Shown in pieces: positions 39,256 through 54,236 of a DNA stretch of 55,908 bases. Numbering within the stretch: the first letter of the stretch is position 1; the number at the start of each line of letters is the position of its first letter. The DNA is from an uncultured Solirubrobacteraceae bacterium (GTDB lineage: Bacteria > Actinomycetota > Thermoleophilia > Solirubrobacterales > Solirubrobacteraceae). Location: the NCBI GenBank assembly GCA_964588985.1, contig CAZPQW010000023.1:1-55908 (forward strand), in the 5' to 3' direction. The translations under genes were made by a program, and so were the position numbers. The notes under the pieces were generated by a model. That model did not search any database. It saw nothing but the letters and a program-made list of their open reading frames with translations, and had not been told where the DNA came from.

Positions 39256-40377
39256 ATGGAGGAGGTGATCCCGCTCGCGCGCCCGGTGTTGGGGGAGGCG
39301 GAGGAGCGCGCGGTGATCGACGTGCTGCGTTCGGGGCAGCTGTCGCTCGGCCCGCGGGTCCCCGAGTTCGAGCGTCTGTTCGCCGAGCGCGTGGCCGCGC
39401 CGCTGGCGTGCGCGGTGAGCAGCGGGACGGCGGGGCTTCACCTCGCGCTGCGCGCGGTGGGCGTGGGGGAGGGCGATGAGGTGATCACGAGCCCGTTCTC
39501 GTTCGTGGCATCCGCGAACGCGGCGCTGTACGAGCGCGCGCGTCCTGTGTTCGCTGACATCGACCCGATCACGCTCAACCTCGACCCGCAGGCGGCCGCC
39601 GCGGCGGTGAGCGAGCGCACCCGGGCGGTGCTACCGGTTCACATCTTCGGCTACCCAGCCGACATGCCTGCGTTTGAGGGGCTGGCCGGCAAGCACGACC
39701 TGGGGATCGTGGAGGACGCGTGTGAGGCGCTCGGCGCGACACATGCGGACGGGACGCCGGTGGGCGGTCGCGGGCACCCCGCGGTGTTCGGCTTCTACGC
39801 AAACAAGCAGCTCACCACCGGTGAGGGGGGGATGGTGACACTCGCGGACGCTGCGCTGAAGGAGCGGATCGACTCTGAGCGCAACCAGGGCCGTGCACCG
39901 GACATGGGCTGGCTCGACCACGACAGGCTGGGGTTCAACTATCGCCTGTCGGACATCGCGTGCGCGCTCGGGATCGCGCAACTGCGGCGGCTGGAGGAGA
40001 TGCTCGCCGCGCGTGCTCGGGTCGCGCAGCTCTACCGCGAGGCGCTCTCCGGGATCGAGGGGCTGGAGGTGCCGTGTCTCGACAGAGACGGAGACACTCG
40101 CGGCTGGTTCGTGTTCGTCGTGCAGCTGCCCCACGGCGTCGATCGTGATGAGACCGTGCGCGCGCTCGGACACGTCGGCATCCAGAGCAAGCCATACCTG
40201 CCTGCGATTCACCTGATGAGCTTCTATCGCGAGCGTTTCGGTTACCGCGATGGCCAGTTCCCTGTCTGCGAGGATGTTGCCAGGCGCTCTGTTGCGCTGC
40301 CGTTCTTCCCCGGGATGGGGGAGGAGCAGGTTGCTCGAGTATCCGAGCAGCTCGCTCGCATCGTGCCGACCGCTTGA
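39256..40377 (+). CDS. DegT/DnrJ/EryC1/StrS family PLP aminotransferase
   Basis: SSGTAGLHLAL, VEDACEALG, FYANKQLTTGEGG, GFNYRL. Confidence 0.92.
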   Translation: MEEVIPLARPVLGEAEERAVIDVLRSGQLSLGPRVPEFERLFAERVAAPLACAVSSGTAGLHLALRAVGVGEGDEVITSPFSFVASANAALYERARPVFADIDPITLNLDPQAAAAAVSERTRAVLPVHIFGYPADMPAFEGLAGKHDLGIVEDACEALGATHADGTPVGGRGHPAVFGFYANKQLTTGEGGMVTLADAALKERIDSERNQGRAPDMGWLDHDRLGFNYRLSDIACALGIAQLRRLEEMLAARARVAQLYREALSGIEGLEVPCLDRDGDTRGWFVFVVQLPHGVDRDETVRALGHVGIQSKPYLPAIHLMSFYRERFGYRDGQFPVCEDVARRSVALPFFPGMGEEQVARVSEQLARIVPTA

Positions 40378-40674: not shown

Positions 40675-41376
40675 ATGAGACTCATGAAAATGATCGGGCT
40701 GTGCCTTGCGGCGATGTTCGCGGTCAGCGGACTGACTGCTACCGGGGCGTTCGCGGCGCCGGAATTCTTACACGAAGGCAAAGAACTCGTCAAAAAAGGA
40801 TTCACGGTAAAAAGCAAAACCGGGGCGACGTTAGTGGAACTCGGCGAAACGAAATACAAAATTGTCTGCACCAGCAGCATCTCGTCGGGAAAGGTCACCG
40901 GCAAGACCGAAGTCGAAGGGGTGGTCGCGAGGTTCAAAGGATGCAGGGCCAAAGAAGAATCAGAATCGACTGAATGCGAAGTGAACAGTACGAGCCCTTT
41001 GGGGGGTCCGGAAGAAATCATCACGAAGACGCTCAAAGGCCGACTCGGGTTAGTGGGCAGTGCCGAAGCGGTCACCGAACGCGGGCTGCTGCTGTTACCG
41101 GCGAGCGGCTCGGTGTACGTCACGATCACGGGGTCCACGGTCTGCCTTCCGGCGGAAACCTCGGAAGTCAAAGGAGGCCTGATCGGGGAAATCAAGCCGA
41201 TCCGCACTCTGAAACTCAAAGGCGAACTGATCTACAAGGCCAAGGAACAGAAAACACAGTTAATCAAAAAATTCGTCGGCGAAAGCGCGATGCACGAACT
41301 GGAAATCTTCGGCGTCAAAACGCCGCTCGAATCCACTGACATGGTGGACTACGAAGAAGCCGTCGAAGTGACCTAG
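40675..41376 (+). CDS. Secreted Glu/Lys/Thr-rich protein, paralog 1
   Basis: Signal peptide ending AFA; 4 Cys in the mature part; aligns gap-free with the next gene. Confidence 0.88.
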   Translation: MRLMKMIGLCLAAMFAVSGLTATGAFAAPEFLHEGKELVKKGFTVKSKTGATLVELGETKYKIVCTSSISSGKVTGKTEVEGVVARFKGCRAKEESESTECEVNSTSPLGGPEEIITKTLKGRLGLVGSAEAVTERGLLLLPASGSVYVTITGSTVCLPAETSEVKGGLIGEIKPIRTLKLKGELIYKAKEQKTQLIKKFVGESAMHELEIFGVKTPLESTDMVDYEEAVEVT

Positions 41377-41405
41377 GTGGCGATCGCCGGACGAACGAGT
41401 CGCAA

Positions 41406-41437
41406 GCTGCGTGGGGCCCGCAGGGGCCTCGCGCAGC
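41406..41437 (+). terminator. GC-rich 14-bp hairpin after paralog 1
   Basis: GCTGCGTGGGGCCC-GCAG-GGGCCTCGCGCAGC (with G-U pairs); no U-tract. Confidence 0.5.
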
Positions 41438-41575
41438 GCTGATGGGGAGGCGATGAGGGTCGCGGCGTTGCTCGCACGGCGTAGCGGGAGGCGCGTCGGC
41501 ATGGCGATGCAGCCGCCAGAATCCAGCCTACAGAGCTGTTTTTAGGGCTCGGATGAAGCCGACGCATCGGCCATC

Positions 41576-41593
41576 AGAAACATGATCTATTCT
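41576..41593. promoter_or_regulatory. Candidate operator, copy 2 (AGAAACATGATCTATTCT)
   Basis: AGAA-N10-TTCT dyad; matches 40486-40503. Confidence 0.5.
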
Positions 41594-41636
41594 TCCCGGC
41601 GCAGTTGTCGCGTTGAACAACGTCCGGGGGAGGATG

Positions 41637-42344
41637 ATGAGGATGATACGGCCAAAGACGATCGGCCTTGGTCTCGTGGCTGCGCTCGCGATGAGCGGGC
41701 TCGGATCCACGTCGGCTCTAGCGGTGCCCGAATTCCTGCACGAAGGCAAAGAAGTCGTCAAAACGGGTTTTACGACCAAAAGCAGCACTGGGACGATATA
41801 TGTCGAAGTGGGGGAAACGAAATACAAAATCGTCTGCAAATCGAGCACGGCATCGGGAAAAATCAAGGGGACGAAAGAAGTCGAAGGCGTAGTCATCAAG
41901 TTCAAAGGATGCAAGGCGAAAGAAGAAGGAGAATCAACCGAATGTGAAGTGAACAGCACGAACCCTCTTGGGGGTACGGAAGAAATCATCACGAAAACAC
42001 TCAAGGGCAGGCTCGGCACGGTGGCGGCGGGCGAAGCTGCATCCGAACGAGGGCTGACTCTAGAAGCGACCACGGGGTCCGTGTTCGCGGCGATCGTGGG
42101 GTCGACGGTCTGCCTGCCAGCGGAAACCTCCGAAATCAAAGGAGTCTTGATCGGCGAAATCAAGCCGGTGAAAACTCTGAAACTCAAAGGCGAACTGGTT
42201 TTCAAAACGAAAGAAATGAAAACCCAGCTGATCAAACATCTCGTTGGAGAACTTGGAAATCATGAACTGGAAGTGTTCGGAGTCAAAACGCCGCTCGAAA
42301 CGACGACTGTCGCCGAATACGCCGAAGCCGTCGAAGTGACATAG
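41637..42344 (+). CDS. Secreted Glu/Lys/Thr-rich protein, paralog 2
   Basis: Signal peptide ending ALA; PEFLHEGKE...EAVEVT shared with paralog 1; start among ATGs 41634/41637/41643. Confidence 0.88.
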   Translation: MRMIRPKTIGLGLVAALAMSGLGSTSALAVPEFLHEGKEVVKTGFTTKSSTGTIYVEVGETKYKIVCKSSTASGKIKGTKEVEGVVIKFKGCKAKEEGESTECEVNSTNPLGGTEEIITKTLKGRLGTVAAGEAASERGLTLEATTGSVFAAIVGSTVCLPAETSEIKGVLIGEIKPVKTLKLKGELVFKTKEMKTQLIKHLVGELGNHELEVFGVKTPLETTTVAEYAEAVEVT

Positions 42345-42524: not shown

Positions 42525-45065
42525 ATGCGGTTGCGAGCGCAAGCCAAGCGCCGGATGACAGGTCGGGGGCTGGTCGCGGCGCTGGTCGCAATCGTGGCTC
42601 TGCCATGCGTCGGCGCTCGCGCGGAATGCCATGCCAACAGCGCCTTCGGTGGGGTGCGCTCGTTTCTTCCGGATTGCCGCGAGTACGAGCTCGTTACGCC
42701 TCCCTACAAAGACGGCTCGCCGCCCGAAGAGCTACCCAGCGGCCTGTCGATGATCTCGAGCGACGGCAACCACGTGCTCGCATCCGACACGGGAGGCTTC
42801 GTCGGGACGGAAAACGACGAATTGAACGGCAGGCAGAAGGGCGCGATCTACGAAATGACGCGTATCGCGGGCGGGTGGACAGCCGAAGCCATCTCGCCGT
42901 CCGCCGAAACCGCGGCTCACAGCGACTTCATCGCCGAGAGCTCCGATTTCGCCCGCTCGCTGTGGGAGATCGGCGCACAGAGCGAACCGGGCGAAGAAGT
43001 CACGTCGACGAACGTGCCTTTCAGCCTGGCCCTGCGCGAAAAGCGCTCGGGCGCAGCCGCTGCGATGGTCGAAGTTGGCCCAGAGGACCTGCCGGGGGCT
43101 CCCGCTCACAGCTTCGTCTTCGAAGGGGCGTCCAGCGATCTGGGCACGATCGTGTTCACGACCGTCGGTAAAAAAACGCACTGGCCGGGCGATCTGACCC
43201 GAGCGAGCGGCAATTCGCTGTACGCGTACACAGGCACGCACAACCGTGAACCGGTTCTCGTGGGTGTGAAGAACGAAGGGCCGCTGGTCGGCGCGGCGGA
43301 GCGCAACGAACACGCCGAACTGGTCAGCGAATGCGGCACGGTGCTCGGGGCGGGATTCGCGGGACATGGAAACACGCGCAACGCGATCTCGGCCGATGGC
43401 TCGACGATCTACTTCACCGCGCTGCGTGGGAGCTGCGAAGCGCCGGCGGTCAACGAACTGTATGCACGCATCGACGGCGACAGCACGGTGGCGATCTCCG
43501 AGCCGGCGATGGAGGGGTCACGTTTGGAAGAATGCACGGAAATCTGCCGTGAAGACGAGCTCTCGTTGGAAGGGCACGGTCCCAGCCCGGCCACCTTCCG
43601 AGGAGCCTCGAGGGACGGCAGGAAGGTGTTCTTCACGACCGAACAGCCGCTGCTGAATGTCGACCGAGACACGAGCAACGACATCTACGAGGCGGAACTG
43701 GAAGGCGGCGCGCTCACACGTCTGACCATGGTTTCACGTGGTCTCGCGAACGGCGGGCCCGCAGTGGAAGATCCGGCTCCCGGCGAAAACGCGGACGTGT
43801 ATGCGGTCGTCCGCGTCTCGGACAACGGGGCGCATGTGTACTTCATCGCGCGCGGCGTCCTGACGCAAGCGCCGAACGGCGTGAAAGAAATGGCGCAGGC
43901 CGGCGCATACAACCTGTACGACTACGACAGCACGACCGGCACGACGAGGCTCGTGGCCGTGCTGCTCTCGGCGGGAGAACTGCAGAGCATCGAAGAAGCG
44001 GTCACCACGAGAATCGAAACACCGGCGTTGGTACTGCAGGCGCGTTGCGAAGCATTCGTGGAACTCAAAGGCTCGCCTGAAGAAGTCGAAGAATGCGAAG
44101 CCGAACTGGCTCTCTTGCGAGAAGCGATCCCAGCCGAAATCGCTGCGGCGCTCGAAGCCGAAGTGAATGCGACTCTGGAGCTCGGGCCGAAAGAAAAGGT
44201 GTTCTCCACGTCGGCCGGCGGCCGATACCTGATCTTCGAGAGCCTCAGGCACCTCACCGGAGCGGAGGACACGAGCACCGTGGGTCAGCTGTTCGAGTAC
44301 GACGCGGCGACTGGAGAACTTGCGAGAGCGTCGATCGGACAGAGCGGCTACAACAACAACGGCAACACGGAAAACGCCGAATACGTGCCACGGATCGTCG
44401 TTCCCGAAGACGCCTCCGGTGGAGAACCCACATCGGCGTCCGCCTCGCTGTCGGTCTCCGAAGTGGGCGGCGTGTTCTTCACGAGCCGCGACCGGCTCAC
44501 GCCGAGCGCGATCGAAGGGCATGAAAACGTATACGAGTACGAGCCGCCCGCGACGGGAAGCTGCGGAGCGGAAGTCCTCGGCGGGTGCATCGAGCTGATC
44601 TCGCCTGGCGACGAAGCGTCGCCCGCCGAAGTGCGCAACAAACCGAGGCTGCTGGGAGCGGACATCTCTGGCAATGACGTCTTCTTCGTGTCGGCGAACA
44701 GCCTCCTCACGCGGGACACCGACACCCAGCTCGACTGGTATGACGCGCGGGTGGAAGGCGGCTTCGAAGAAGTCGCCGCAGCCGAAGGCTGCAGCGAAGT
44801 CGCCTGCCAGGGCCCAGCGCCCCTTGCGCCTGTCCTCCCGTCACTCGGCGGGAGCGCGACGCTAGGTGGCGAACCCCCGGCTGGCGCTCCCGGACCGCTC
44901 CCGAAGGCGCCGAAGTCGAAGGCGTCTGCGCTGAAGCTCGCTAAGGCTCTGAAGGCGTGTCGCAGGGGTCCTCGCAGGCAGCGCCGCACCTGCGAAGCCC
45001 GCGCGCGGAGACGATTTGCCAAGAAGGCCGTCGTCGGCAAGAGCGCACGCAGGGGGACGCGATGA
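42525..45065 (+). CDS. Large secreted beta-propeller-like protein with basic Cys-containing C-terminal tail
   Basis: Hydrophobic N-terminal segment; repeated (I/A/V)SxDGxxVxF...(D/N)(L/I/V)YE blades; tail KLAKALKACRR...CEARARRRF. Confidence 0.8.
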   Translation: MRLRAQAKRRMTGRGLVAALVAIVALPCVGARAECHANSAFGGVRSFLPDCREYELVTPPYKDGSPPEELPSGLSMISSDGNHVLASDTGGFVGTENDELNGRQKGAIYEMTRIAGGWTAEAISPSAETAAHSDFIAESSDFARSLWEIGAQSEPGEEVTSTNVPFSLALREKRSGAAAAMVEVGPEDLPGAPAHSFVFEGASSDLGTIVFTTVGKKTHWPGDLTRASGNSLYAYTGTHNREPVLVGVKNEGPLVGAAERNEHAELVSECGTVLGAGFAGHGNTRNAISADGSTIYFTALRGSCEAPAVNELYARIDGDSTVAISEPAMEGSRLEECTEICREDELSLEGHGPSPATFRGASRDGRKVFFTTEQPLLNVDRDTSNDIYEAELEGGALTRLTMVSRGLANGGPAVEDPAPGENADVYAVVRVSDNGAHVYFIARGVLTQAPNGVKEMAQAGAYNLYDYDSTTGTTRLVAVLLSAGELQSIEEAVTTRIETPALVLQARCEAFVELKGSPEEVEECEAELALLREAIPAEIAAALEAEVNATLELGPKEKVFSTSAGGRYLIFESLRHLTGAEDTSTVGQLFEYDAATGELARASIGQSGYNNNGNTENAEYVPRIVVPEDASGGEPTSASASLSVSEVGGVFFTSRDRLTPSAIEGHENVYEYEPPATGSCGAEVLGGCIELISPGDEASPAEVRNKPRLLGADISGNDVFFVSANSLLTRDTDTQLDWYDARVEGGFEEVAAAEGCSEVACQGPAPLAPVLPSLGGSATLGGEPPAGAPGPLPKAPKSKASALKLAKALKACRRGPRRQRRTCEARARRRFAKKAVVGKSARRGTR

Positions 45066-48000
45066 GCGGGAAGTGTCGCCGAACGGCCTCGAGGTGGGCG
45101 ACGGTTCTGACCGCGGCGCTCTCGCTCGGGCTGCTGTCACTCGGTGCTGGCGTGGCACCTGCGGGAGCGGTGGGGGTCGCCCCCGGGTGGGCGATCAGCT
45201 CGTTGCCTCAGCCGAGCAACTTCTCCAACGCCGAAAACGCGCTATGCGAACAGGCGAGCGAAATCTGCGACGCCTACGTCGTGACCGTCACGAACGTGGG
45301 GGAAGCTCCGTCGGATGGCACGCCGATCGTGATCACCGACAAGCTGCCGCCGGGCCTCGTGGTCAACAACGCGGTGGCGGAAGACATGGAAACCAGCGAA
45401 CTCCTGGAATGTGTGCTGGAACCGGTTCATCCGCCTGAAGAAGAAGGCGAAGAACTGCCGCCGCCCCCTCCGTACACCGAAGTCACCTGCAGGGACACCG
45501 GTGTTCTGCGGCCTGGTGACGTGATCTACCTCAAAGTCAACGCTCTCGTCGCCACCAACGCGACCATCCCGCTCGTCACGAATGTCGTGAAAGTCACAGG
45601 CGGCGGCGCCGCGAGCGCGACGGCCTTGGATCCGTCCGCGTCGGCGTCGTCGAACAGCGTGAACTCCGAAACTCCGGCATTCGGGCCGCAGATCTTCAGC
45701 GCACGCGCGTTCGGCTCGGATGGGTCACCCGACACACAGGCCGGCGACCATCCGGGCATACTCATCACAACGCTCGACTACAACACGTTCAACTTCGCGT
45801 TCACGCACCCCGGATCGTCCACCGCGGAGGACTCGATCCAGGCTCCCAAGACGATCATCGTCAACCTCCCCGTGGGGCTGGTCGGCAATCCGCTTGCGGC
45901 GGCGCAGTGCCCAGAGGCCGACCTCCGCGAAAGCGGCCCCGGCTGCCCGGCCGACAGCCAGGTTGGGACGGTCATAGCGGACGAGCACGGCCTCCTGACC
46001 GACAGCGAGAGCACCCTGGGAGGCACCTCAAGCAGCATCTACAACATGGTGCCGCAGGACGGAAATCCGATGGAGTTCGCGTTCAACGTGGCCAATGAGG
46101 GCGAGATCGCGATGTACCCCCGGTTCATCCCGACCCCGTCGGGCTATGCCCTCAGCATCCCCGTCCCGGCCCAGCCGCGGTCGGGGCTGACGCCTGTCGG
46201 CACCACGCTGATGTTCTTCGGCGATCCGGCGCTGCGCGATGCGGAACTGCACCAGCGTGCGGCAGAACGTGAAACGGGCCACCCTGTCGCACTGGAAGCG
46301 ATCGCGCCCGCGGCGATGTTCACCAACCCGACCGACTGCAGCGCCGAACCGGCGGTTGCGAGAGTTGAAATGAACTCCTGGGTCCAGCCGCACAACTGGG
46401 TTACGCAGACCTCGCCGCTATACGAAGCCAACCCCCTGCAGCAGCTGACCGAGTGCAGCGGCCTCCAGTTCGACCCGCAGATCGAAGTCAAGCCCGAAGC
46501 AACTCAGACCGACACCCCATCCGGGTACACGGTCGACATCAAGGTGCCGCAGACCCCGAACTTCGCCCCGGATCTCGCCAGCTCGGACCTGAAGGACGCA
46601 GAACTGCGCCTACCCGCCGGGGTGGCCATCTCTCCGGCCGCGGGAACTGGGCTCGTGGGCTGTCCTGCGACCGGTCCCGAAGGGATCAACATCACGCACG
46701 GCTGGACGCCCACAGGCGCGCAGCCGCTCGATCCAGCGGATCCGGAGGCCATGGAAATAGGCGCGGACGGCCTGCCGCGCATCGCCCCGGGCCACTGTCC
46801 GTCGGCTTCACAGGTCGGCACGGTCGAAATCACGACCCCACTGCTCGCCCAGCCGCTGGCCGGTGACGTGTACATCGCAGAACCGGACTGTGGGCGGCCC
46901 GCGTGCACCCTCGAAGACGCCGAAAAGGGGCGCCTGTTCGGGCTGTACGCGGAAGCCAAGGGCTCGGGCTTGATCATCAAGCTCGAAGGTCGGATCACGG
47001 TCGACGGAGCGGGGAACATGACGGTGAGCTTCAACGAAGCACCTCAGCTTCCGTTCACCGATCTGCAGATGAAGCTCAAGGGTGGCGACAGAGGGCTGTT
47101 GGCGAACCCGCAGGGCTGCGCCGTCGCCCAGACCACGAGCACGATGACGCCGTGGGGTGCTCCGGAAGCCAAGATCGCCGAACCCACCTCGTCGTTCTCG
47201 CCGACAGGCTGTCCGGCCTCCGAGCCCTTCGCCCCGGGGTTCCTGGCGCAGACGTCGATACCGAGCGCTGGGGGCACGAGCCCGCTCACGGTCCTCCTCA
47301 CGAGACACGATGGCGAACAGGGCCTCTACGGATTCGAGTTGAAGACCCCGCCCGGAGTGCTCGGGATGCTCTCGCAGGTGACGCCGTGCTCCGAGCCGCA
47401 GGCCTCGCTCGGCACCTGCCCTCCCGAAAGCCAGATCGGTCACGTGGTGGTGGCTGTCGGCGCCGGTACGCAACCGGTGTGGGAGTCCGGAGCGGTCTAC
47501 CTGACCGTGGGTTACGAAGGAGCGCCCTTCGGGCTTTCGATCGTCACGCCCGCGAACGTCGGACCGTTCCACCTCGGGAACGTGATCACGAGGGCGGCGA
47601 TCCACATCGATCCGCACACCGCGGCGCTCACGGTCGATGCGAAGCTGCCATCGGCCGTCGACGGCGTTCAGCTACGCCTCCAGGCGATCGACATGACGAT
47701 CGACAGGCCCGGGTTCATGCTCAACCCGACGAACTGCGGTCCGCAGCAGGTGACGGCGACCGTCACGGGCGCCCTTCCGGACGAGAGCCAGGGGGCAGCT
47801 GTCGCAGCATCGACTCCATTCGCGGTGGCCGGCTGCAAGAGCCTGCCGTTCACGCCGAAGATGACCGCGGTCGCGCACGCGAAGACGAGCAAAGCGAGCG
47901 GCGCCTACCTGCAGGTGAACATCGCGGCCACGCCCGGACAGGACGACCTCGCCAAGATCAAGGTGGTGCTGCCCAAGCAGCTGCCGTCGCGACTGACGAC

Positions 48001-48493
48001 GCTGCAGAAAGCGTGTGTCGCGGCCGTCTTCGAAGCCAATCCCGCGAGTTGCCCGCCCGGATCCGTGGTGGGGTCGGGCACCGTAGTGACGCCGCTGCTG
48101 AAGAGCCCGCTCACCGGCCCCGCCTACCTGGTCTCTCACGGCGGCGCGGCATTCCCCGACCTCGAGATCGTGCTCCAGGGCGAAGGCGTGACGGTGATAT
48201 TCGATGGAAGCACCCAGATCGCGAAAGGCACGACCTCGGATGCGTTCAAAGCGCTACCAGACGCGCCCTTCAGCAGCTTCAAGCTGACCCTGCCGGATGG
48301 ACCCAACGGGCTGCTCGGCGCGAACGCGAGCCTCTGCGGCGTGAAGCTCTCGATGCCGACCGCGCTCGTCGCTCAGAACGGCGCGACAATCAAGCAGAGC
48401 ACGAAGATCGCGGTCTCGGGCTGTCCGAAGCACAGAGCCAAGACCAGTGCGCACATGGGCCACGGGGGGAGACGCGCGACCAAGAAGCACTGA
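45062..48493 (+). CDS. Very large secreted multi-domain beta-rich protein (DUF11-like N-terminal domain)
   Basis: Signal peptide; YVVTVTNVG...ITDKLPPGL; repeated LPxG..C...CPxxSQ(V/I)G and NPTxC modules; ATGA overlap with upstream gene. Confidence 0.85.
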   Translation: MSGKCRRTASRWATVLTAALSLGLLSLGAGVAPAGAVGVAPGWAISSLPQPSNFSNAENALCEQASEICDAYVVTVTNVGEAPSDGTPIVITDKLPPGLVVNNAVAEDMETSELLECVLEPVHPPEEEGEELPPPPPYTEVTCRDTGVLRPGDVIYLKVNALVATNATIPLVTNVVKVTGGGAASATALDPSASASSNSVNSETPAFGPQIFSARAFGSDGSPDTQAGDHPGILITTLDYNTFNFAFTHPGSSTAEDSIQAPKTIIVNLPVGLVGNPLAAAQCPEADLRESGPGCPADSQVGTVIADEHGLLTDSESTLGGTSSSIYNMVPQDGNPMEFAFNVANEGEIAMYPRFIPTPSGYALSIPVPAQPRSGLTPVGTTLMFFGDPALRDAELHQRAAERETGHPVALEAIAPAAMFTNPTDCSAEPAVARVEMNSWVQPHNWVTQTSPLYEANPLQQLTECSGLQFDPQIEVKPEATQTDTPSGYTVDIKVPQTPNFAPDLASSDLKDAELRLPAGVAISPAAGTGLVGCPATGPEGINITHGWTPTGAQPLDPADPEAMEIGADGLPRIAPGHCPSASQVGTVEITTPLLAQPLAGDVYIAEPDCGRPACTLEDAEKGRLFGLYAEAKGSGLIIKLEGRITVDGAGNMTVSFNEAPQLPFTDLQMKLKGGDRGLLANPQGCAVAQTTSTMTPWGAPEAKIAEPTSSFSPTGCPASEPFAPGFLAQTSIPSAGGTSPLTVLLTRHDGEQGLYGFELKTPPGVLGMLSQVTPCSEPQASLGTCPPESQIGHVVVAVGAGTQPVWESGAVYLTVGYEGAPFGLSIVTPANVGPFHLGNVITRAAIHIDPHTAALTVDAKLPSAVDGVQLRLQAIDMTIDRPGFMLNPTNCGPQQVTATVTGALPDESQGAAVAASTPFAVAGCKSLPFTPKMTAVAHAKTSKASGAYLQVNIAATPGQDDLAKIKVVLPKQLPSRLTTLQKACVAAVFEANPASCPPGSVVGSGTVVTPLLKSPLTGPAYLVSHGGAAFPDLEIVLQGEGVTVIFDGSTQIAKGTTSDAFKALPDAPFSSFKLTLPDGPNGLLGANASLCGVKLSMPTALVAQNGATIKQSTKIAVSGCPKHRAKTSAHMGHGGRRATKKH

Positions 48494-51357: not shown

Positions 51358-51958
51358 CTTCTACGACCGCCCCGTGCTCGAGGTCGCACGCGAGCTGATC
51401 GGCTGCACGGTCGAGCATCGCGGCGTAGCGGGCGTGATCGTCGAGACCGAGGCCTACCACGAGAGCGAGCCCGCGTGTCACGCGTTCGTGGGGCTCACGC
51501 CTCGCACGAGCACCCTGTTCGGCGAGCCGGGGCGCGCATACGTGTACCTCTCCTACGGCATCCACTCGCTCTTCAACGCCGTGTGCGAGCCCGAAGGAGT
51601 CGGCGCGGCGGTGTTGATCCGCGCGCTCGCGCCGACCGTGGGCATAGAGACGATGCGCTCGCGCCGTGGGCAGGTGCGCGACCGCGACCTCTGCTCCGGC
51701 CCGGGCAAGCTCACCCAGGCGCTGGGCATCTCGCTCGCCGAGAACGGCGTGGACCTGAGCGACGGCGAGATCCGAATCCGACCACGGGAAGAGGGGTGGC
51801 TCGAGCCGGATGTGGTCGAGGGAACCCGCATCGGGATCACCCGTGCGGTCGACCTGCGCTGGCGCTTCTGCGCGGCCGGCGACCCGAACGTGTCGCGACC
51901 CCGCACGACGCAGGGAGCAGCCGTGCTCAGCGGCTCAGCAGCTAGCCCCCGGGACTGA
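51338..51958 (+). CDS. mpg: 3-methyladenine DNA glycosylase (AAG/MPG family)
   Basis: IVETEAY, AYVYLSYGIH, AVLIRA, GPGKLTQAL, RIGIT. Confidence 0.92.
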   Translation: MQALRADFYDRPVLEVARELIGCTVEHRGVAGVIVETEAYHESEPACHAFVGLTPRTSTLFGEPGRAYVYLSYGIHSLFNAVCEPEGVGAAVLIRALAPTVGIETMRSRRGQVRDRDLCSGPGKLTQALGISLAENGVDLSDGEIRIRPREEGWLEPDVVEGTRIGITRAVDLRWRFCAAGDPNVSRPRTTQGAAVLSGSAASPRD

Positions 51959-54236
51959 CGCCGCCCGTCGGCGACGGCGATGCGGGCGGCGTGGAGGGGG
52001 GAGTCGCGCTCGGGGTTTCGTGAGAGGGAGAGGGCGTCGCCGGCGTGCTCGAGTGTTCGGGGCTGGGCGTCCCGGCGCCGGCTTTCGATTCCCCGCTCGT
52101 GCCGCCGGGAGTGCTCGACTTGCCGGTGCCTGTCGGTTTCGAGTTCTGGTTCGGAGTTGTCGCGGTGGACGACGTCGAGCTTGATTCCGAGGATTCGGTC
52201 GTCGTCGTGTTGGCGCCCGCGTGGGCGCCGGCGGCTTCGGCGACGTGTTCGGCTCGTTCTTTTTCGATCTGCAGCGCGGAGGTCATGAAGCTGTGCCAGA
52301 TCAGCGCGGGGAAGGTCCCGCCGAGCACCGGCTTGCCGCCGAACGCGGTCGTCATCGGCACGAGCTTGTTGGGGTAGCCGACCCACACGGCGACGGTGTA
52401 CTTGGAGTCCCAGCCGACGAACCACGCATCGCCGTAGTTCGAGGTGGTGCCCGTCTTGCCGGCCGCGAACTGGCCGATCGCGGCGGCCTTGCCGGTGCCG
52501 TACTGCAGCACCGTCTCGAGTACCGAGGTCTCGGTGGCGGCGATGCTCGCCGGCAGCACGCGCTTGGTGAGGACGCGGTTGGTGTCGTGGCGCGCGCCGT
52601 CCTGGAGGCGTTCGTGGCCGGCGGTGACTTCCTGGATGCCGACGGGCCCTTCGTCTTCGACCATGCTGCCGCTGACGCGCAGGCCGCCGTGGGCGATCGT
52701 CTCGTAGGCGTGCGCCATGTCCAGCGGCGTGACGCCGACGGTGAGCCCGCCGATCGTCATCGCGGGGTTCGTCGACAGCGGCGTGGTGATGCCCATCTTG
52801 TGGGCGAGGAGGGCGATGCGGCGTGTGCCGACCTTCAAGCCGACTTCCGCATAGATCGAGTTGTCTGAGAACGCGGTGGCGGCGGTCAGTGTGTTCGAGC
52901 CTGAGTAGGCGCCTTCGTCGTTGTGCACGACGAACTTTTCCAAACCGTGGGAGCTGTGAACGAAGAACACCTTCTGCTTGGAGGTCCACACCGAGTCGGG
53001 CGAGATGCCGGCCTCGAGCGCGGCCGCGAGGTCGAACGCCTTGAACGAGGAGCCTGGCTGGCGCTCGCCCTGGGTGGCGAGGTTGAATGGGCTTTCGTCG
53101 TAGTTGCGTCCGCCGACCATCGCGCGCACCTCGCCGGTGGAGTTTTCGATCGCTACGAGCGACGCGGTCGGGCCTTCGGGGCTGGCGAGGTAGCCGTTGA
53201 CGGCCTGTTCGGCGGAGCGCTGCAGGCCGAGGTCGAGCGTCGTCTTGATCCGCAGGCCGCCGTTGAACGCGCGCGGCGCGCCATAGCGTTCGATGATCTG
53301 CTGCTGCACCCAGCTGGTGAAGTAGCCGGCGTTGACGCCTTCGACCGTCTGCTCGTGCGGGGCCTGGATCTCGCTTGGCGCGGGGAGCGACTCGTTGACG
53401 CTCGCTTCGTACAGCGGTCTGGTCAGGTAGCCCTGTTGGAGCATCTGTTCGAGCACGACATCGCGTCGCCGTTTGGCGGCCATCGGGTGGTTCGCGGGGT
53501 CGTATCCGGTTGGCGAGCGGATTATTCCCGCGAGCAGCGCCGCCTCCCACGGCTGGAGCTCTTCGACGCACAGCTGCTTCCCGGGCATGCCGCAGCCGAG
53601 GTGGTTGACGTCGTGGCCGAAGTAGGTCTGCGCCGCGGCCTCGATGCCGTAGGCGCCGTTGCCGAAGTAGATCGTGTTGAGGTACGCCGTGATGATCTTG
53701 TCCTTCGACCACTTGTGCGAGAGCTGGTAGGCGAGCGCGGCCTCCCTGAGCTTCTCGAAGATCGTGCGGTGCGACTGGGCCTGCAGCGCGTTCTTGATGA
53801 ACTGCTGCTCGATGGTGGAGGCGCCCTGGACGCCGCCTTTGTGGCGGATGTCGGCGTAGAACGCGCGTGCGATGCCGCGGATGTCGATGCCGCTGTTGCC
53901 GTAGAAGCGCTTGTCCTCGATCGAGATCACCGCCTCCTTGACGATCCGCGGGATCTGGCTGGGCGTCACGATCACGCGGTTCTGCTGGCTGAGCACGCCG
54001 ATCGGGTGGCCGAGGTCGTCGGTCAGAACCGAGCTCTGCTCTTCCTTGAACTGGGAGAAGCGTGTCAGCGAGGGCAGGTCCGAGGCGACCGACACGAAGA
54101 TCCCGAACACGAACGAGACGAGGCCGAGGAGCAGGAGGGAGGAGAGGATCGCGAAGAAGCGCAGCCGCTTCAGCCGCGGCTTGCTCGTCGATCTCAGATC
54201 GGAAGGCGTTATGTCGGGGCGATCGTCATCGCTCAT
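51942..54236 (-). CDS. Class A penicillin-binding protein (transglycosylase/transpeptidase)
   Basis: EDKRFY, QGASTIEQQ, YLNTIYFG; SSFK, SDN, KTGT; N-terminal TM helix, Ser/Thr/Pro tail. Confidence 0.94.
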   Translation of the reverse strand: MSDDDRPDITPSDLRSTSKPRLKRLRFFAILSSLLLLGLVSFVFGIFVSVASDLPSLTRFSQFKEEQSSVLTDDLGHPIGVLSQQNRVIVTPSQIPRIVKEAVISIEDKRFYGNSGIDIRGIARAFYADIRHKGGVQGASTIEQQFIKNALQAQSHRTIFEKLREAALAYQLSHKWSKDKIITAYLNTIYFGNGAYGIEAAAQTYFGHDVNHLGCGMPGKQLCVEELQPWEAALLAGIIRSPTGYDPANHPMAAKRRRDVVLEQMLQQGYLTRPLYEASVNESLPAPSEIQAPHEQTVEGVNAGYFTSWVQQQIIERYGAPRAFNGGLRIKTTLDLGLQRSAEQAVNGYLASPEGPTASLVAIENSTGEVRAMVGGRNYDESPFNLATQGERQPGSSFKAFDLAAALEAGISPDSVWTSKQKVFFVHSSHGLEKFVVHNDEGAYSGSNTLTAATAFSDNSIYAEVGLKVGTRRIALLAHKMGITTPLSTNPAMTIGGLTVGVTPLDMAHAYETIAHGGLRVSGSMVEDEGPVGIQEVTAGHERLQDGARHDTNRVLTKRVLPASIAATETSVLETVLQYGTGKAAAIGQFAAGKTGTTSNYGDAWFVGWDSKYTVAVWVGYPNKLVPMTTAFGGKPVLGGTFPALIWHSFMTSALQIEKERAEHVAEAAGAHAGANTTTTESSESSSTSSTATTPNQNSKPTGTGKSSTPGGTSGESKAGAGTPSPEHSSTPATPSPSHETPSATPPSTPPASPSPTGGVSPGG

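Follow-up and report, generated by a model that had tools for sequence, protein, structure and literature searches.

A location-dependent split of the glutamate codons GAA and GAG in a genus of soil Actinomycetota, with an aberrant tRNA(UUC)

Two secreted paralogs and their locus

Contig CAZPQW010000023.1 of an uncultured Solirubrobacteraceae bacterium (GenBank assembly GCA_964588985.1), analyzed here over a stretch of 55,908 nucleotides (the window; contig C23 of the assembly), carries two paralogous genes in which every glutamate is encoded by GAA. They belong to a genus-specific split of the glutamate codons by cellular location, with a weaker parallel in the lysine codons. The whole assembly (G000) comprises 3.41 Mb in 48 contigs at 68.3% GC and is 96% complete. 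Paralog 1 (40675 to 41376, forward strand) codes for a secreted protein of 233 amino acids and has 28 GAA and no GAG codons, together with 18 AAA, 6 AAG, and 5 TTA codons; paralog 2 (41613 to 42344, forward strand) has 29 GAA, no GAG, 20 AAA, 6 AAG, and no TTA. This recount agrees with the original prediction, which had given GAA at 28/28 and 29/29, AAA at 18/24, and five TTA codons, and adds AAA at 20/26 in paralog 2. The true start of paralog 2 is probably an ATG at 41634, 41637, or 41643, behind GGGGGAGG, and these alternatives leave its glutamate count unaltered. Both proteins have a signal-peptide-like N terminus.

The paralogs are 69% identical, and their shared glutamates are GAA in both at 27 of 27 positions; among the 94 identical residues whose amino acids have four to six codons, 45 are encoded differently in the two genes. 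Against a genome-wide GAA share of 0.194 (12,458 of 64,326 glutamate codons; the AAA share is 0.175), 57 GAA codons out of 57 are far beyond chance (0.194^57). Once the glutamate and lysine codons are set aside, the GC content at third codon positions (GC3) is 0.85 and 0.77 (genome median, 0.909; 5th percentile, 0.762), and C-ending codons predominate in the two-fold boxes. The other boxes are thus host-like, as had been proposed, and a simple AT-rich donor offers no explanation, since the glutamate and lysine codons alone differ.

A third paralog on contig C14 has 29 GAA codons and 1 GAG. The predicted model (AF2) of the paralogs is all-beta with 18 strands (mean pLDDT 73.8, pTM 0.71), and four cysteines are conserved. 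Pfam searches with both proteins at an E value of ≤0.01 returned no families, and a PDB fold search with the model at ≤0.001 gave no match; the closest Atlas clusters are unnamed Actinomycetota proteins (TM 0.73 to 0.78), some of which carry fused phosphoesterase and Fn3 domains. Small, fully exported, and rich in glutamate and lysine, the paralogs are simply the most extreme members of the codon class described below.

Two further GAA-rich genes lie on the same strand and may form one surface-protein locus with the paralogs. The first (42555 to 45065, forward strand) codes for an exported protein of 836 amino acids with a signal-peptide-like N terminus (GAA 66/84), and the next gene in the same cluster (45170 to 48493, forward strand) codes for 1,107 amino acids with an uncertain start (GAA 43/58); neither product has a Pfam family. 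The biosynthetic genes around these four are GAG-type. An adjacent aminotransferase-like gene (39256 to 40377, forward strand), which is cytoplasmic and provides a contrast, has GAA at 0/29 and AAA at 0/4, and most genes in the window have 0 to 15% GAA, in keeping with the earlier statement that flanking housekeeping genes mostly use GAG. Also in the window is a gene for a class A penicillin-binding protein, PBP1A-like, membrane anchored, and extracytoplasmic (51942 to 54236, reverse strand), with 26 GAA and 18 GAG codons.

The TTA codons of paralog 1 have a context of their own. Genome-wide, only 112 of about 102,000 leucine codons are TTA, and these are concentrated in small GAA/AAA-rich secreted proteins, a type that includes nearly all genes with at least three TTA codons; the frequency per 1,000 leucines is 3.57 in signal-peptide genes and 0.97 in cytoplasmic genes. 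Opposite the five TTA codons of paralog 1, paralog 2 has two CTG codons, one tyrosine, one threonine, and one GAA.

GAA use and export

The genome was represented by 2,919 genes from a crude codon-model caller of our own making. GAA accounts for 1.2% of all codons, and its share of glutamate codons is bimodal among the 2,358 genes with at least 10 of them: 1,665 fall below 0.2, and a second hump extends from 0.5 to 1.0. Comparing a GAA-rich class (share ≥0.6; 195 genes) with a GAG-type class (share ≤0.2; 1,722 genes), the GAA share is 0.774 versus 0.087, which reflects the class criterion itself, and the AAA share of lysine, which is independent of that criterion, is 0.395 versus 0.096. GAA and AAA are enriched jointly (r = 0.65 over 959 genes), and all remaining codon shares lie within 0.12 of each other in the two classes (CAA, 0.095 versus 0.064). 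Selection for unstructured, A-rich mRNA, one of the original suggestions, is therefore not sustained, as CAA and other A-ending codons are barely enriched. Avoidance of Shine-Dalgarno-like sequences was also considered and rejected, AGG and GGA being higher, not lower, in GAA-rich genes.

GAA-rich proteins are high in T, S, N, G, and K and low in R, D, and L, and 5,802 of the 12,458 GAA codons are in genes with a share of at least 0.5. Among the 20 top GAA genes, Pfam finds Fn3, PhoD-N, TIG (11 repeats), collagen repeats, NHL, Big_10, or nothing, and no housekeeping family; solute-binding domains are also represented among the top genes. Housekeeping genes have few GAA codons: GroEL 3/53, AtpD 5/42, ClpB 9/101, RecA 4/29, EF-G 11/71, Eno 2/33, GlnA 3/44, and a fragment of RpoC 8/79. 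The sole EF-Tu-like match (contig C29, 1 to 261) is broken by the contig end, and tuf is probably present in more than one copy or badly assembled; a script run on the congeners' loci likewise detected no EF-Tu.

The codon choice could be incidental if GAA-rich genes were highly expressed and used optimal codons, or if they came from a GAA-preferring donor, and both the reduced GC content at 40 to 43 kb (0.57 to 0.62) and the occurrence of GAA-rich genes in clusters and operons would be in line with this. However, it is GAG that highly expressed and housekeeping genes use, and codons other than those for glutamate and lysine are the host's own. The local GC dip is mostly a matter of glutamate and lysine codons, because the GC3 of the paralogs is close to that of the host once these are removed. 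Homologs of the paralogs in congeners retain the bias at only 27 to 36% identity (360 GAA versus 49 GAG), and codon choice switches within genes. GAA use thus follows neither expression nor overall GC3, which is host-like at the other codons of the GAA-rich class, and we find expression or foreign origin scarcely credible as the cause.

The association with export was assessed with a crude signal-peptide and hydropathy classifier. A GAA share of at least 0.5 is found in 57% of 222 signal-peptide genes versus 4.8% of 1,496 "cytoplasmic" genes (Mann-Whitney p 7e-42), which is the bimodality tied to secretion that had been predicted. The 195 GAA-rich genes comprise 94 with a signal peptide, 35 with a single span, 9 with a signal peptide plus a span, 8 with multiple spans, and 49 classed as "cytoplasmic," part of which must be classifier or start-codon errors.

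The split follows location within operons and within single genes. In an opp-like operon, GAA is used at 1/26 and 0/23 glutamates of the ATPases, at 5/9 and 2/5 of the permeases, and at 14/19 of the SBP_bac_5 binding protein. Three bitopic Hanks-type kinases have GAA at 10/66 glutamates before the span, in the cytoplasmic part, and at 19/29 after it, in the extracellular part (Fisher p 2e-6); AAA in the same genes is 0/19 and 6/23, respectively, and CAA is equal. For polytopic proteins, with topology assigned by K+R counts, GAA in internal loops of up to 40 residues is 26/350 (0.074) inside versus 96/241 (0.398) outside (p 1.3e-21), and the aspartate and glutamine controls have no inside/outside difference. 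Long loops follow with 0.26 inside versus 0.44 outside. Within predicted signal peptides, GAA is used at 32/175 glutamates; after the predicted cleavage site, the share is 0.22 at residues 0 to 10, 0.41 to 0.43 at 10 to 40, and about 0.5 beyond, and the final 40 codons use GAA as often as the rest.

Two mechanisms were set aside on this evidence. A membrane-localized tRNA pool is ruled out by the inside loops and C-terminal cytoplasmic domains, which are made by membrane-bound ribosomes and keep GAG. Slowing of translation timed to translocation, with a lag of 35 to 60 residues, predicts GAA one loop later, and the opposite is seen.

Conservation of codon choice and the meaning of GAA

The codon choice is conserved column by column. 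In a codon alignment of PBP1A from 30 congeners (72 to 80% identity), 22 columns have glutamate in at least 25 species, and 17 of these are monomorphic even though the pooled shares are 0.51 GAA and 0.49 GAG; for Ala, Leu, Val, Thr, and Pro, only 0 or 1 of 33 to 48 columns is monomorphic. GAG is used in 30/30 species at reference positions 107, 143, 161, 165, 199, 512, and 569, and GAA in 30/30 at 316, 343, 364, 464, and 536 and in 28 or 29 at 299, 433, 441, and 684. Position 107 is the catalytic glutamate, in the motif SIEDKRFY, and catalytic and motif glutamates are GAG. The GAA and GAG columns are interleaved inside one domain, and the fixed GAA columns are never mixed with codons of another canonical amino acid. 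Nucleotide context was rejected as the cause: the flanks of fixed GAA and GAG columns overlap (ATC-GAA-CGC and GGC-GAG-CGC), and next-base frequencies differ mildly.

Since an ortholog of the opp-like binding protein was located in only 1 of 40 congeners, one of the kinases was chosen as the second exported ortholog set (30 congeners, 60 to 74% identity). GAA is used at 87/675 glutamates (0.129) of the cytoplasmic part versus 331/431 (0.768) of the extracellular part, and the control, the GAT share of aspartate, is 0.184 and 0.193. The division between GAA and GAG is kept by selection, not drift.

The split is confined to this genus. PBP1A orthologs from ten sister-genus genomes have 0, 0, 0, 0, 0, 1, 1, 2, 4, and 8 GAA codons among 21 to 49 glutamate codons and 0 or 1 AAA; in other families of the order, GAA counts are mostly 0 to 4, with 9 to 14 in two lineages, and EF-G has 0 to 5 GAA in the nearest outgroups. 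Outgroup residues are E or D at columns where the genus has fixed GAA, and E or non-acidic, almost never D, where it has fixed GAG.

These outgroup comparisons bear on the idea that GAA is a neutral by-product, arising as fast-evolving exported proteins gain glutamate from aspartate (GAC to GAA) and retained through weak constraint. In PBP1A, 62% of 48 in-group GAA cases at outgroup-conserved positions are at aspartate and hardly any (2%) at glutamate, GAA in EF-G is at variable columns, and the exported proteins of the genus have been remodeled, with about 25 arginines in the extracytoplasmic part of PBP1A compared with about 44 in sister genera. Against this stand the fixation of GAA in 28 to 30 of 30 species at many columns and the 27 of 27 shared glutamates of the paralogs. 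Moreover, C and G are interchanged freely at third positions of Ala, Leu, Val, Thr, and Pro codons, and EF-G has GAA and GAG intermixed; there is therefore no shortage of mutations, and GAA would give way to GAG. We consider a neutral origin very improbable.

The remodeling of PBP1A extends to charge. The extracytoplasmic part has 60.7 acidic residues in the genus versus 55.8 in sister genera when GAA is counted as acidic. The approximately 19 lost arginines are replaced by T, K, H, and Q, with a net charge shift of about −26 if GAA is acidic, and exported proteins are Arg-poor genome-wide (3.9% versus 8.4%).

The cytoplasmic elongation factor EF-G, aligned for 29 congeners and 29 class-level outgroups, provides the test of what GAA means. 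At outgroup-conserved columns, 90% of the 102 GAA cases coincide with E, compared with 88% for GAG; GAA is absent from conserved R columns and almost absent from conserved D columns. Both codons occur together in 26 of 58 glutamate columns, two of which are glutamate in 29/29 outgroups. Because GAA in EF-G aligns with conserved glutamate just as GAG does, it most likely still encodes glutamate. The two codons are not distributed alike, however. GAA occurs in 2 of 22 invariant-E columns versus 24 of 36 variable ones, and the minor codons of Asp, Gln, Asn, His, Tyr, and Phe do not avoid invariant columns; for the minor codon of lysine there is a trend (1/10 invariant versus 9/21 variable). The avoidance of GAA at invariant glutamates of EF-G and the GAG of the catalytic glutamate of PBP1A together imply that decoding of GAA and GAG is not equivalent at critical sites.

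Three other canonical meanings were tried and rejected. Arginine was suggested by the sum of R and GAA in the GAA class (8.4%) and by an Arg-like tRNA, and GAA never occurs at outgroup-conserved arginine columns. Aspartate is contradicted by the presence of GAA at conserved glutamate columns of EF-G and its absence from conserved aspartate columns. Lysine would load the outside loops with positive charge.

A 96-nt tRNA(UUC) and the interpretation of the split

The inventory of tRNA and mnm genes that had been proposed as a check turned up something other than the expected U34-modified tRNA-Glu. ARAGORN and Rfam searches of the genome detect tRNA-Glu(CUC) and no canonical tRNA-Glu(UUC), which is likewise not found in the full inventory of a closed, one-contig congener, G005 (51 Rfam hits at an E value of ≤1; 47 distinct tRNAs). 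Each genome has a single tRNA with anticodon UUC, a 96-nt gene unnamed by ARAGORN that matches RF00005 with 66.2 bits (threshold, 29) over model positions 1 to 71 as a full cloverleaf. Its anticodon loop is CUUUCAA, and 25 extra nucleotides in the D-loop form a hairpin; the minimum free energy fold is the cloverleaf plus this hairpin (z = −3.5). This novel tRNA is the sole reader of GAA. By our count of the matches, full-length copies with at least 85% identity are present in 70 of 81 congeners (the tool's tally of 73 takes in three with partial or divergent matches only), and 150 other genomes of the class have no full-length match. An alignment of 19 copies has compensatory changes in the hairpin stem, with UUC kept in 17. 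The tRNA shares its acceptor stem with tRNA-Arg(CCG), and in its 3′ half it is similar to Lys, Thr, and Trp tRNAs from other genera; the body is unlike tRNA-Glu(CUC).

As to charging and modification, a single GluRS-family gene, three class IIb synthetases, and a single GatB were found in the genome, and none of the genes adjoining the 96-nt tRNA gene is charging related. There is a match to the MnmA family of U34 thiolases (PF03054, 212 bits), and a search for MnmG (PF01134) gave partial matches and no true MnmG. RNA-library contigs from four studies, examined for splicing of the D-loop insert, span all 96 nt without gaps; because they carry flanks they may be DNA or precursors and do not bear on the mature tRNA.

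The distribution of this tRNA type has further features. Several congeners (G009, G011, G188, G189, G216, G248, G249, G266, and others) have extra copies of its 3′ 40 to 50 nt, a few to tens of kilobases from the full gene, which look like attachment-site repeats of elements integrated in the tRNA gene. The same body with the D-loop hairpin also occurs with anticodon GCG (L379, at G210:C71) or UGU (L380, at G001:C374) on short contigs, with the same acceptor stem and, in L380, a longer hairpin; there is thus a small family of hairpin tRNAs with varied anticodons, possibly on mobile elements. Among five closed genomes of the order searched with a tRNA-Glu(UUC) query at BLAST-level sensitivity, a UUC gene was found in G145 only and CUC in the others. 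In those four (G097, G019, G025, and G163), tRNA-Glu(CUC) alone is detected and PBP1A and EF-G are almost free of GAA, so that, at this level of evidence, GAA may be an unassigned codon in their lineages.

A second unusual tRNA lies on contig C5 of the genome (approximately 97924 to 104243; L279, with counterpart L083 in a congener): a 73-nt class I tRNA with anticodon UAA, discriminator A73, and a body like tRNA-Arg(CCU), present alongside a normal long-arm tRNA-Leu(UAA). Directly downstream are a divergent ArgRS-class gene (PF00750, just 27.9 bits) and genes for a PabAB-like aminodeoxychorismate synthase, a GNAT, a deacetylase, and a type II chorismate mutase, a set that by analogy is reminiscent of p-aminophenylalanine biosynthesis. 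The tRNA(UAA)/ArgRS-like pair is kept in closed congener G005 (64% identity) and could be dedicated to a non-standard amino acid or to a tRNA-dependent natural-product pathway.

A single tRNA gene reading GAA invites the interpretation that whole genes are gated by codon content, as with bldA and TTA, or that their transcripts are tuned through U34 modification, with the supply of UUC and UUU tRNAs setting the output of the exoproteome. The presence of MnmA, the joint enrichment of GAA and AAA, and the grouping of GAA-rich genes in clusters and operons are consistent with this, and there is a precedent in the AA-ending codons of secreted effectors of Magnaporthe oryzae, according to a preprint (bioRxiv 10.1101/2025.11.10.687658). 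However, codons switch within genes and between loops of one mRNA, near-100% usage is unnecessary for gating, CAA is not enriched, and fixation of GAG at individual columns inside GAA-rich genes would not be expected. Further, bulk and essential genes carry about 9% GAA (8.7% in the 1,722 GAG-type genes; 11/71 in EF-G), and the tRNA(UUC) therefore cannot be dispensable. The codon-defined program for exported proteins that was originally proposed thus holds in its link to export and fits poorly as a gene-level gate, which we regard as quite unlikely.

A more radical possibility is that GAA has been captured by a recruited tRNA for a residue distinct from ordinary glutamate but similar to it, whether non-canonical, a tRNA-modified glutamate, or an ambiguous mixture, which would bring an advantage outside, be tolerable at surface positions within the cell, and do harm in place of catalytic glutamates. 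One principle at the level of the protein would then explain why GAA is partitioned by final location even between short loops, why it sets in immediately behind signal peptides and membrane spans, why columns are fixed for GAA or GAG, and why GAA is avoided at invariant glutamates, a feature unique among minor codons. The setting is one that capture would require, GAA being near-absent in sister genera and tRNA-Glu(UUC) not being found in G000, G005, G097, G019, G025, or G163; the new tRNA body is like Arg and Lys tRNAs and unlike tRNA-Glu, and the fixed GAA columns of PBP1A never mix with any canonical amino acid's codons. On the other side, GAA in EF-G is at outgroup-conserved glutamates as often as GAG and intermixes with it even at the two columns that are glutamate in every outgroup. 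There is one GluRS-family gene and one GatB, and no orphan enzyme that could be linked to the tRNA was found. The AAA codon, read by an ordinary-looking tRNA-Lys(UUU), has the same bias more weakly, the meanings Arg, Asp, and Lys are each contradicted, and to propose a new residue for 1.2% of all codons is to claim a great deal. In EF-G, GAA has not become the codon of another amino acid, although a Glu-like non-canonical residue would be invisible to alignment. We think a distinct residue unlikely, and the same doubt applies to the corresponding proposition that the code of the genus is effectively an expanded or split one. On that view GC pressure removed GAA and tRNA-Glu(UUC), and a recruited tRNA with the D-loop hairpin recaptured GAA for a Glu-like residue or a specially delivered glutamate reserved for the extracytoplasmic proteome, which would make GAA and GAG codons of different function. 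If the code were split, more than one codon may be affected, given the tRNA(UAA) beside the divergent ArgRS-like gene.

We tentatively favor the interpretation, with a probability of roughly 0.45, that GAA is the genus's glutamate codon for the outside of the cell, selected through its decoding by the odd tRNA. GAA, and AAA more weakly, is held by selection at nearly all non-critical positions of outside segments, meaning secreted proteins, extracellular domains, and outside loops, with GAG retained in cytoplasmic segments and at catalytic or invariant sites. We infer that the residue inserted is glutamate and that selection sees the decoding act itself, which might differ in speed, in accuracy, or in a ribosome factor recruited by the hairpin. 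Two opposing forces would then operate: a small benefit per codon while a translocation-bound segment is made, and a cost in fidelity or identity of the same decoding that keeps GAA off critical residues.

Several observations weigh against this interpretation. If GAA is ordinary glutamate, only the process of translation can differ, and it is hard to see how it could sense location within loops of up to 40 codons. The share of GAA is already raised 10 to 40 codons past the predicted cleavage site, and the first conserved extracellular glutamate column of the kinase, only 17 residues past the span, is GAA in 23/24; at both points the ribosome should still enclose the targeting segment. Terminal tails of polytopic proteins have equal GAA shares inside and outside (0.163 versus 0.155), and AAA in polytopic proteins has no inside/outside difference. 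Six credible twin-arginine-type candidates range from 0.14 to 0.70 in GAA, some being rich (0.66, 0.70) and others not (0.14, 0.19). The gene calls, signal-peptide classes, and topologies are predictions of crude in-house scripts. Decoding of plain glutamate by the odd tRNA is nevertheless the most conservative explanation and fits GAA as a glutamate codon, strained by the loop-scale resolution and early onset; a distinct residue gives the simplest account of the location rule, strained by EF-G and the parallel AAA bias.

Synonymous codons are assumed to differ just in speed, accuracy, or gene-level regulation. Here, a synonymous pair is sorted according to the side of the membrane on which the residue finally lies, at a resolution of single loops; the sorting is maintained at individual alignment columns throughout a diverse genus and is linked to a tRNA of a new kind. 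We found no described precedent for sorting of synonymous codons by cellular location; a literature search returned no paper on location-dependent synonymous codons or a D-loop hairpin tRNA, and the main text of the Codetta screen (PMC8629427), whose per-genome calls stand in supplements, has no mention of GAA reassignment, Thermoleophilia, or Solirubrobacter. If GAA is plain glutamate, this is a strong natural case in which it matters to the production of exported segments which tRNA does the decoding, and a direct handle on the coupling of translation and export; if it is not, it is a natural recoding of a sense codon at about 1% of codons. In either case, the split has consequences for codon-capture theory, for gene prediction, and, in these abundant soil Actinomycetota, for inferring secretion and topology from DNA alone and for expressing their genes in other hosts.

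Synonymous choice has been tied to export or membrane insertion before, and Fluman, Pechmann, and Kepes are said to have described programmed translation pauses in these processes. Clusters of rare codons in secreted and membrane proteins are linked to export (PMC2833160). Such pause effects are weak and local, at 5′ ends or approximately 35 to 70 codons past a targeting signal, and involve many rare codons, unlike the one codon used here throughout exported segments and fixed per column. Non-canonical tRNAs (tRNA-Sec, tRNA-Pyl, allo-tRNAs, and mitochondrial tRNAs) depart from the standard cloverleaf, and the shape of the D-arm can be a recognition element for enzymes, as for SelA and PSTK on tRNA-Sec (review, PMC7609411). 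Among the passages of that review consulted on the D-arm, D-loop, and insertions, none describes a hairpin inserted in the D-loop. The insert here has 25 nt, covaries, and is combined with anticodons UUC, GCG, and UGU on one body.

In M. oryzae, the AA-ending codons of effectors are tied to tRNA thiolation. The mRNAs concerned are those of secreted cytoplasmic effectors, and the codons are AAA, CAA, and GAA, again according to the preprint (bioRxiv 10.1101/2025.11.10.687658). The likeness is that secreted proteins of one class are distinguished by synonymous codons ending in AA instead of AG; the fungal case differs, as described there, in being a eukaryotic, gene-level marker of one secretion route, with CAA included, no special tRNA, and no partition within proteins. 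AAA, CAA, and GAA do not rise jointly here, as they would in a U34-thiolation program (GAA, 0.77 and 0.09 in the GAA-rich and GAG-type classes; AAA, 0.40 and 0.10; CAA, 0.095 and 0.064).

The Streptomyces bldA gene codes for tRNA-Leu UAA, which serves a regulon of TTA-containing genes. As here, one tRNA gene in a high-GC actinobacterium serves a rare A-ending codon, and that codon is concentrated in genes of a functional class. Growth does not require the bldA tRNA, its targets have one or a few TTA codons, and they are controlled as whole genes; in contrast, GAA reaches 100% of glutamate codons, is also found in essential genes, depends on topology within genes, and is read by an aberrant tRNA. 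In codon capture as formulated by Osawa and Jukes, and in the unassigned codons of high-GC bacteria such as AGA and AUA of Micrococcus luteus, GC pressure nearly removes an A-ending codon and its tRNA, and a new tRNA may later take the codon. The history suggested for GAA is similar, but the codon here seems still to be glutamate while having a location-specific use that the theory does not predict.

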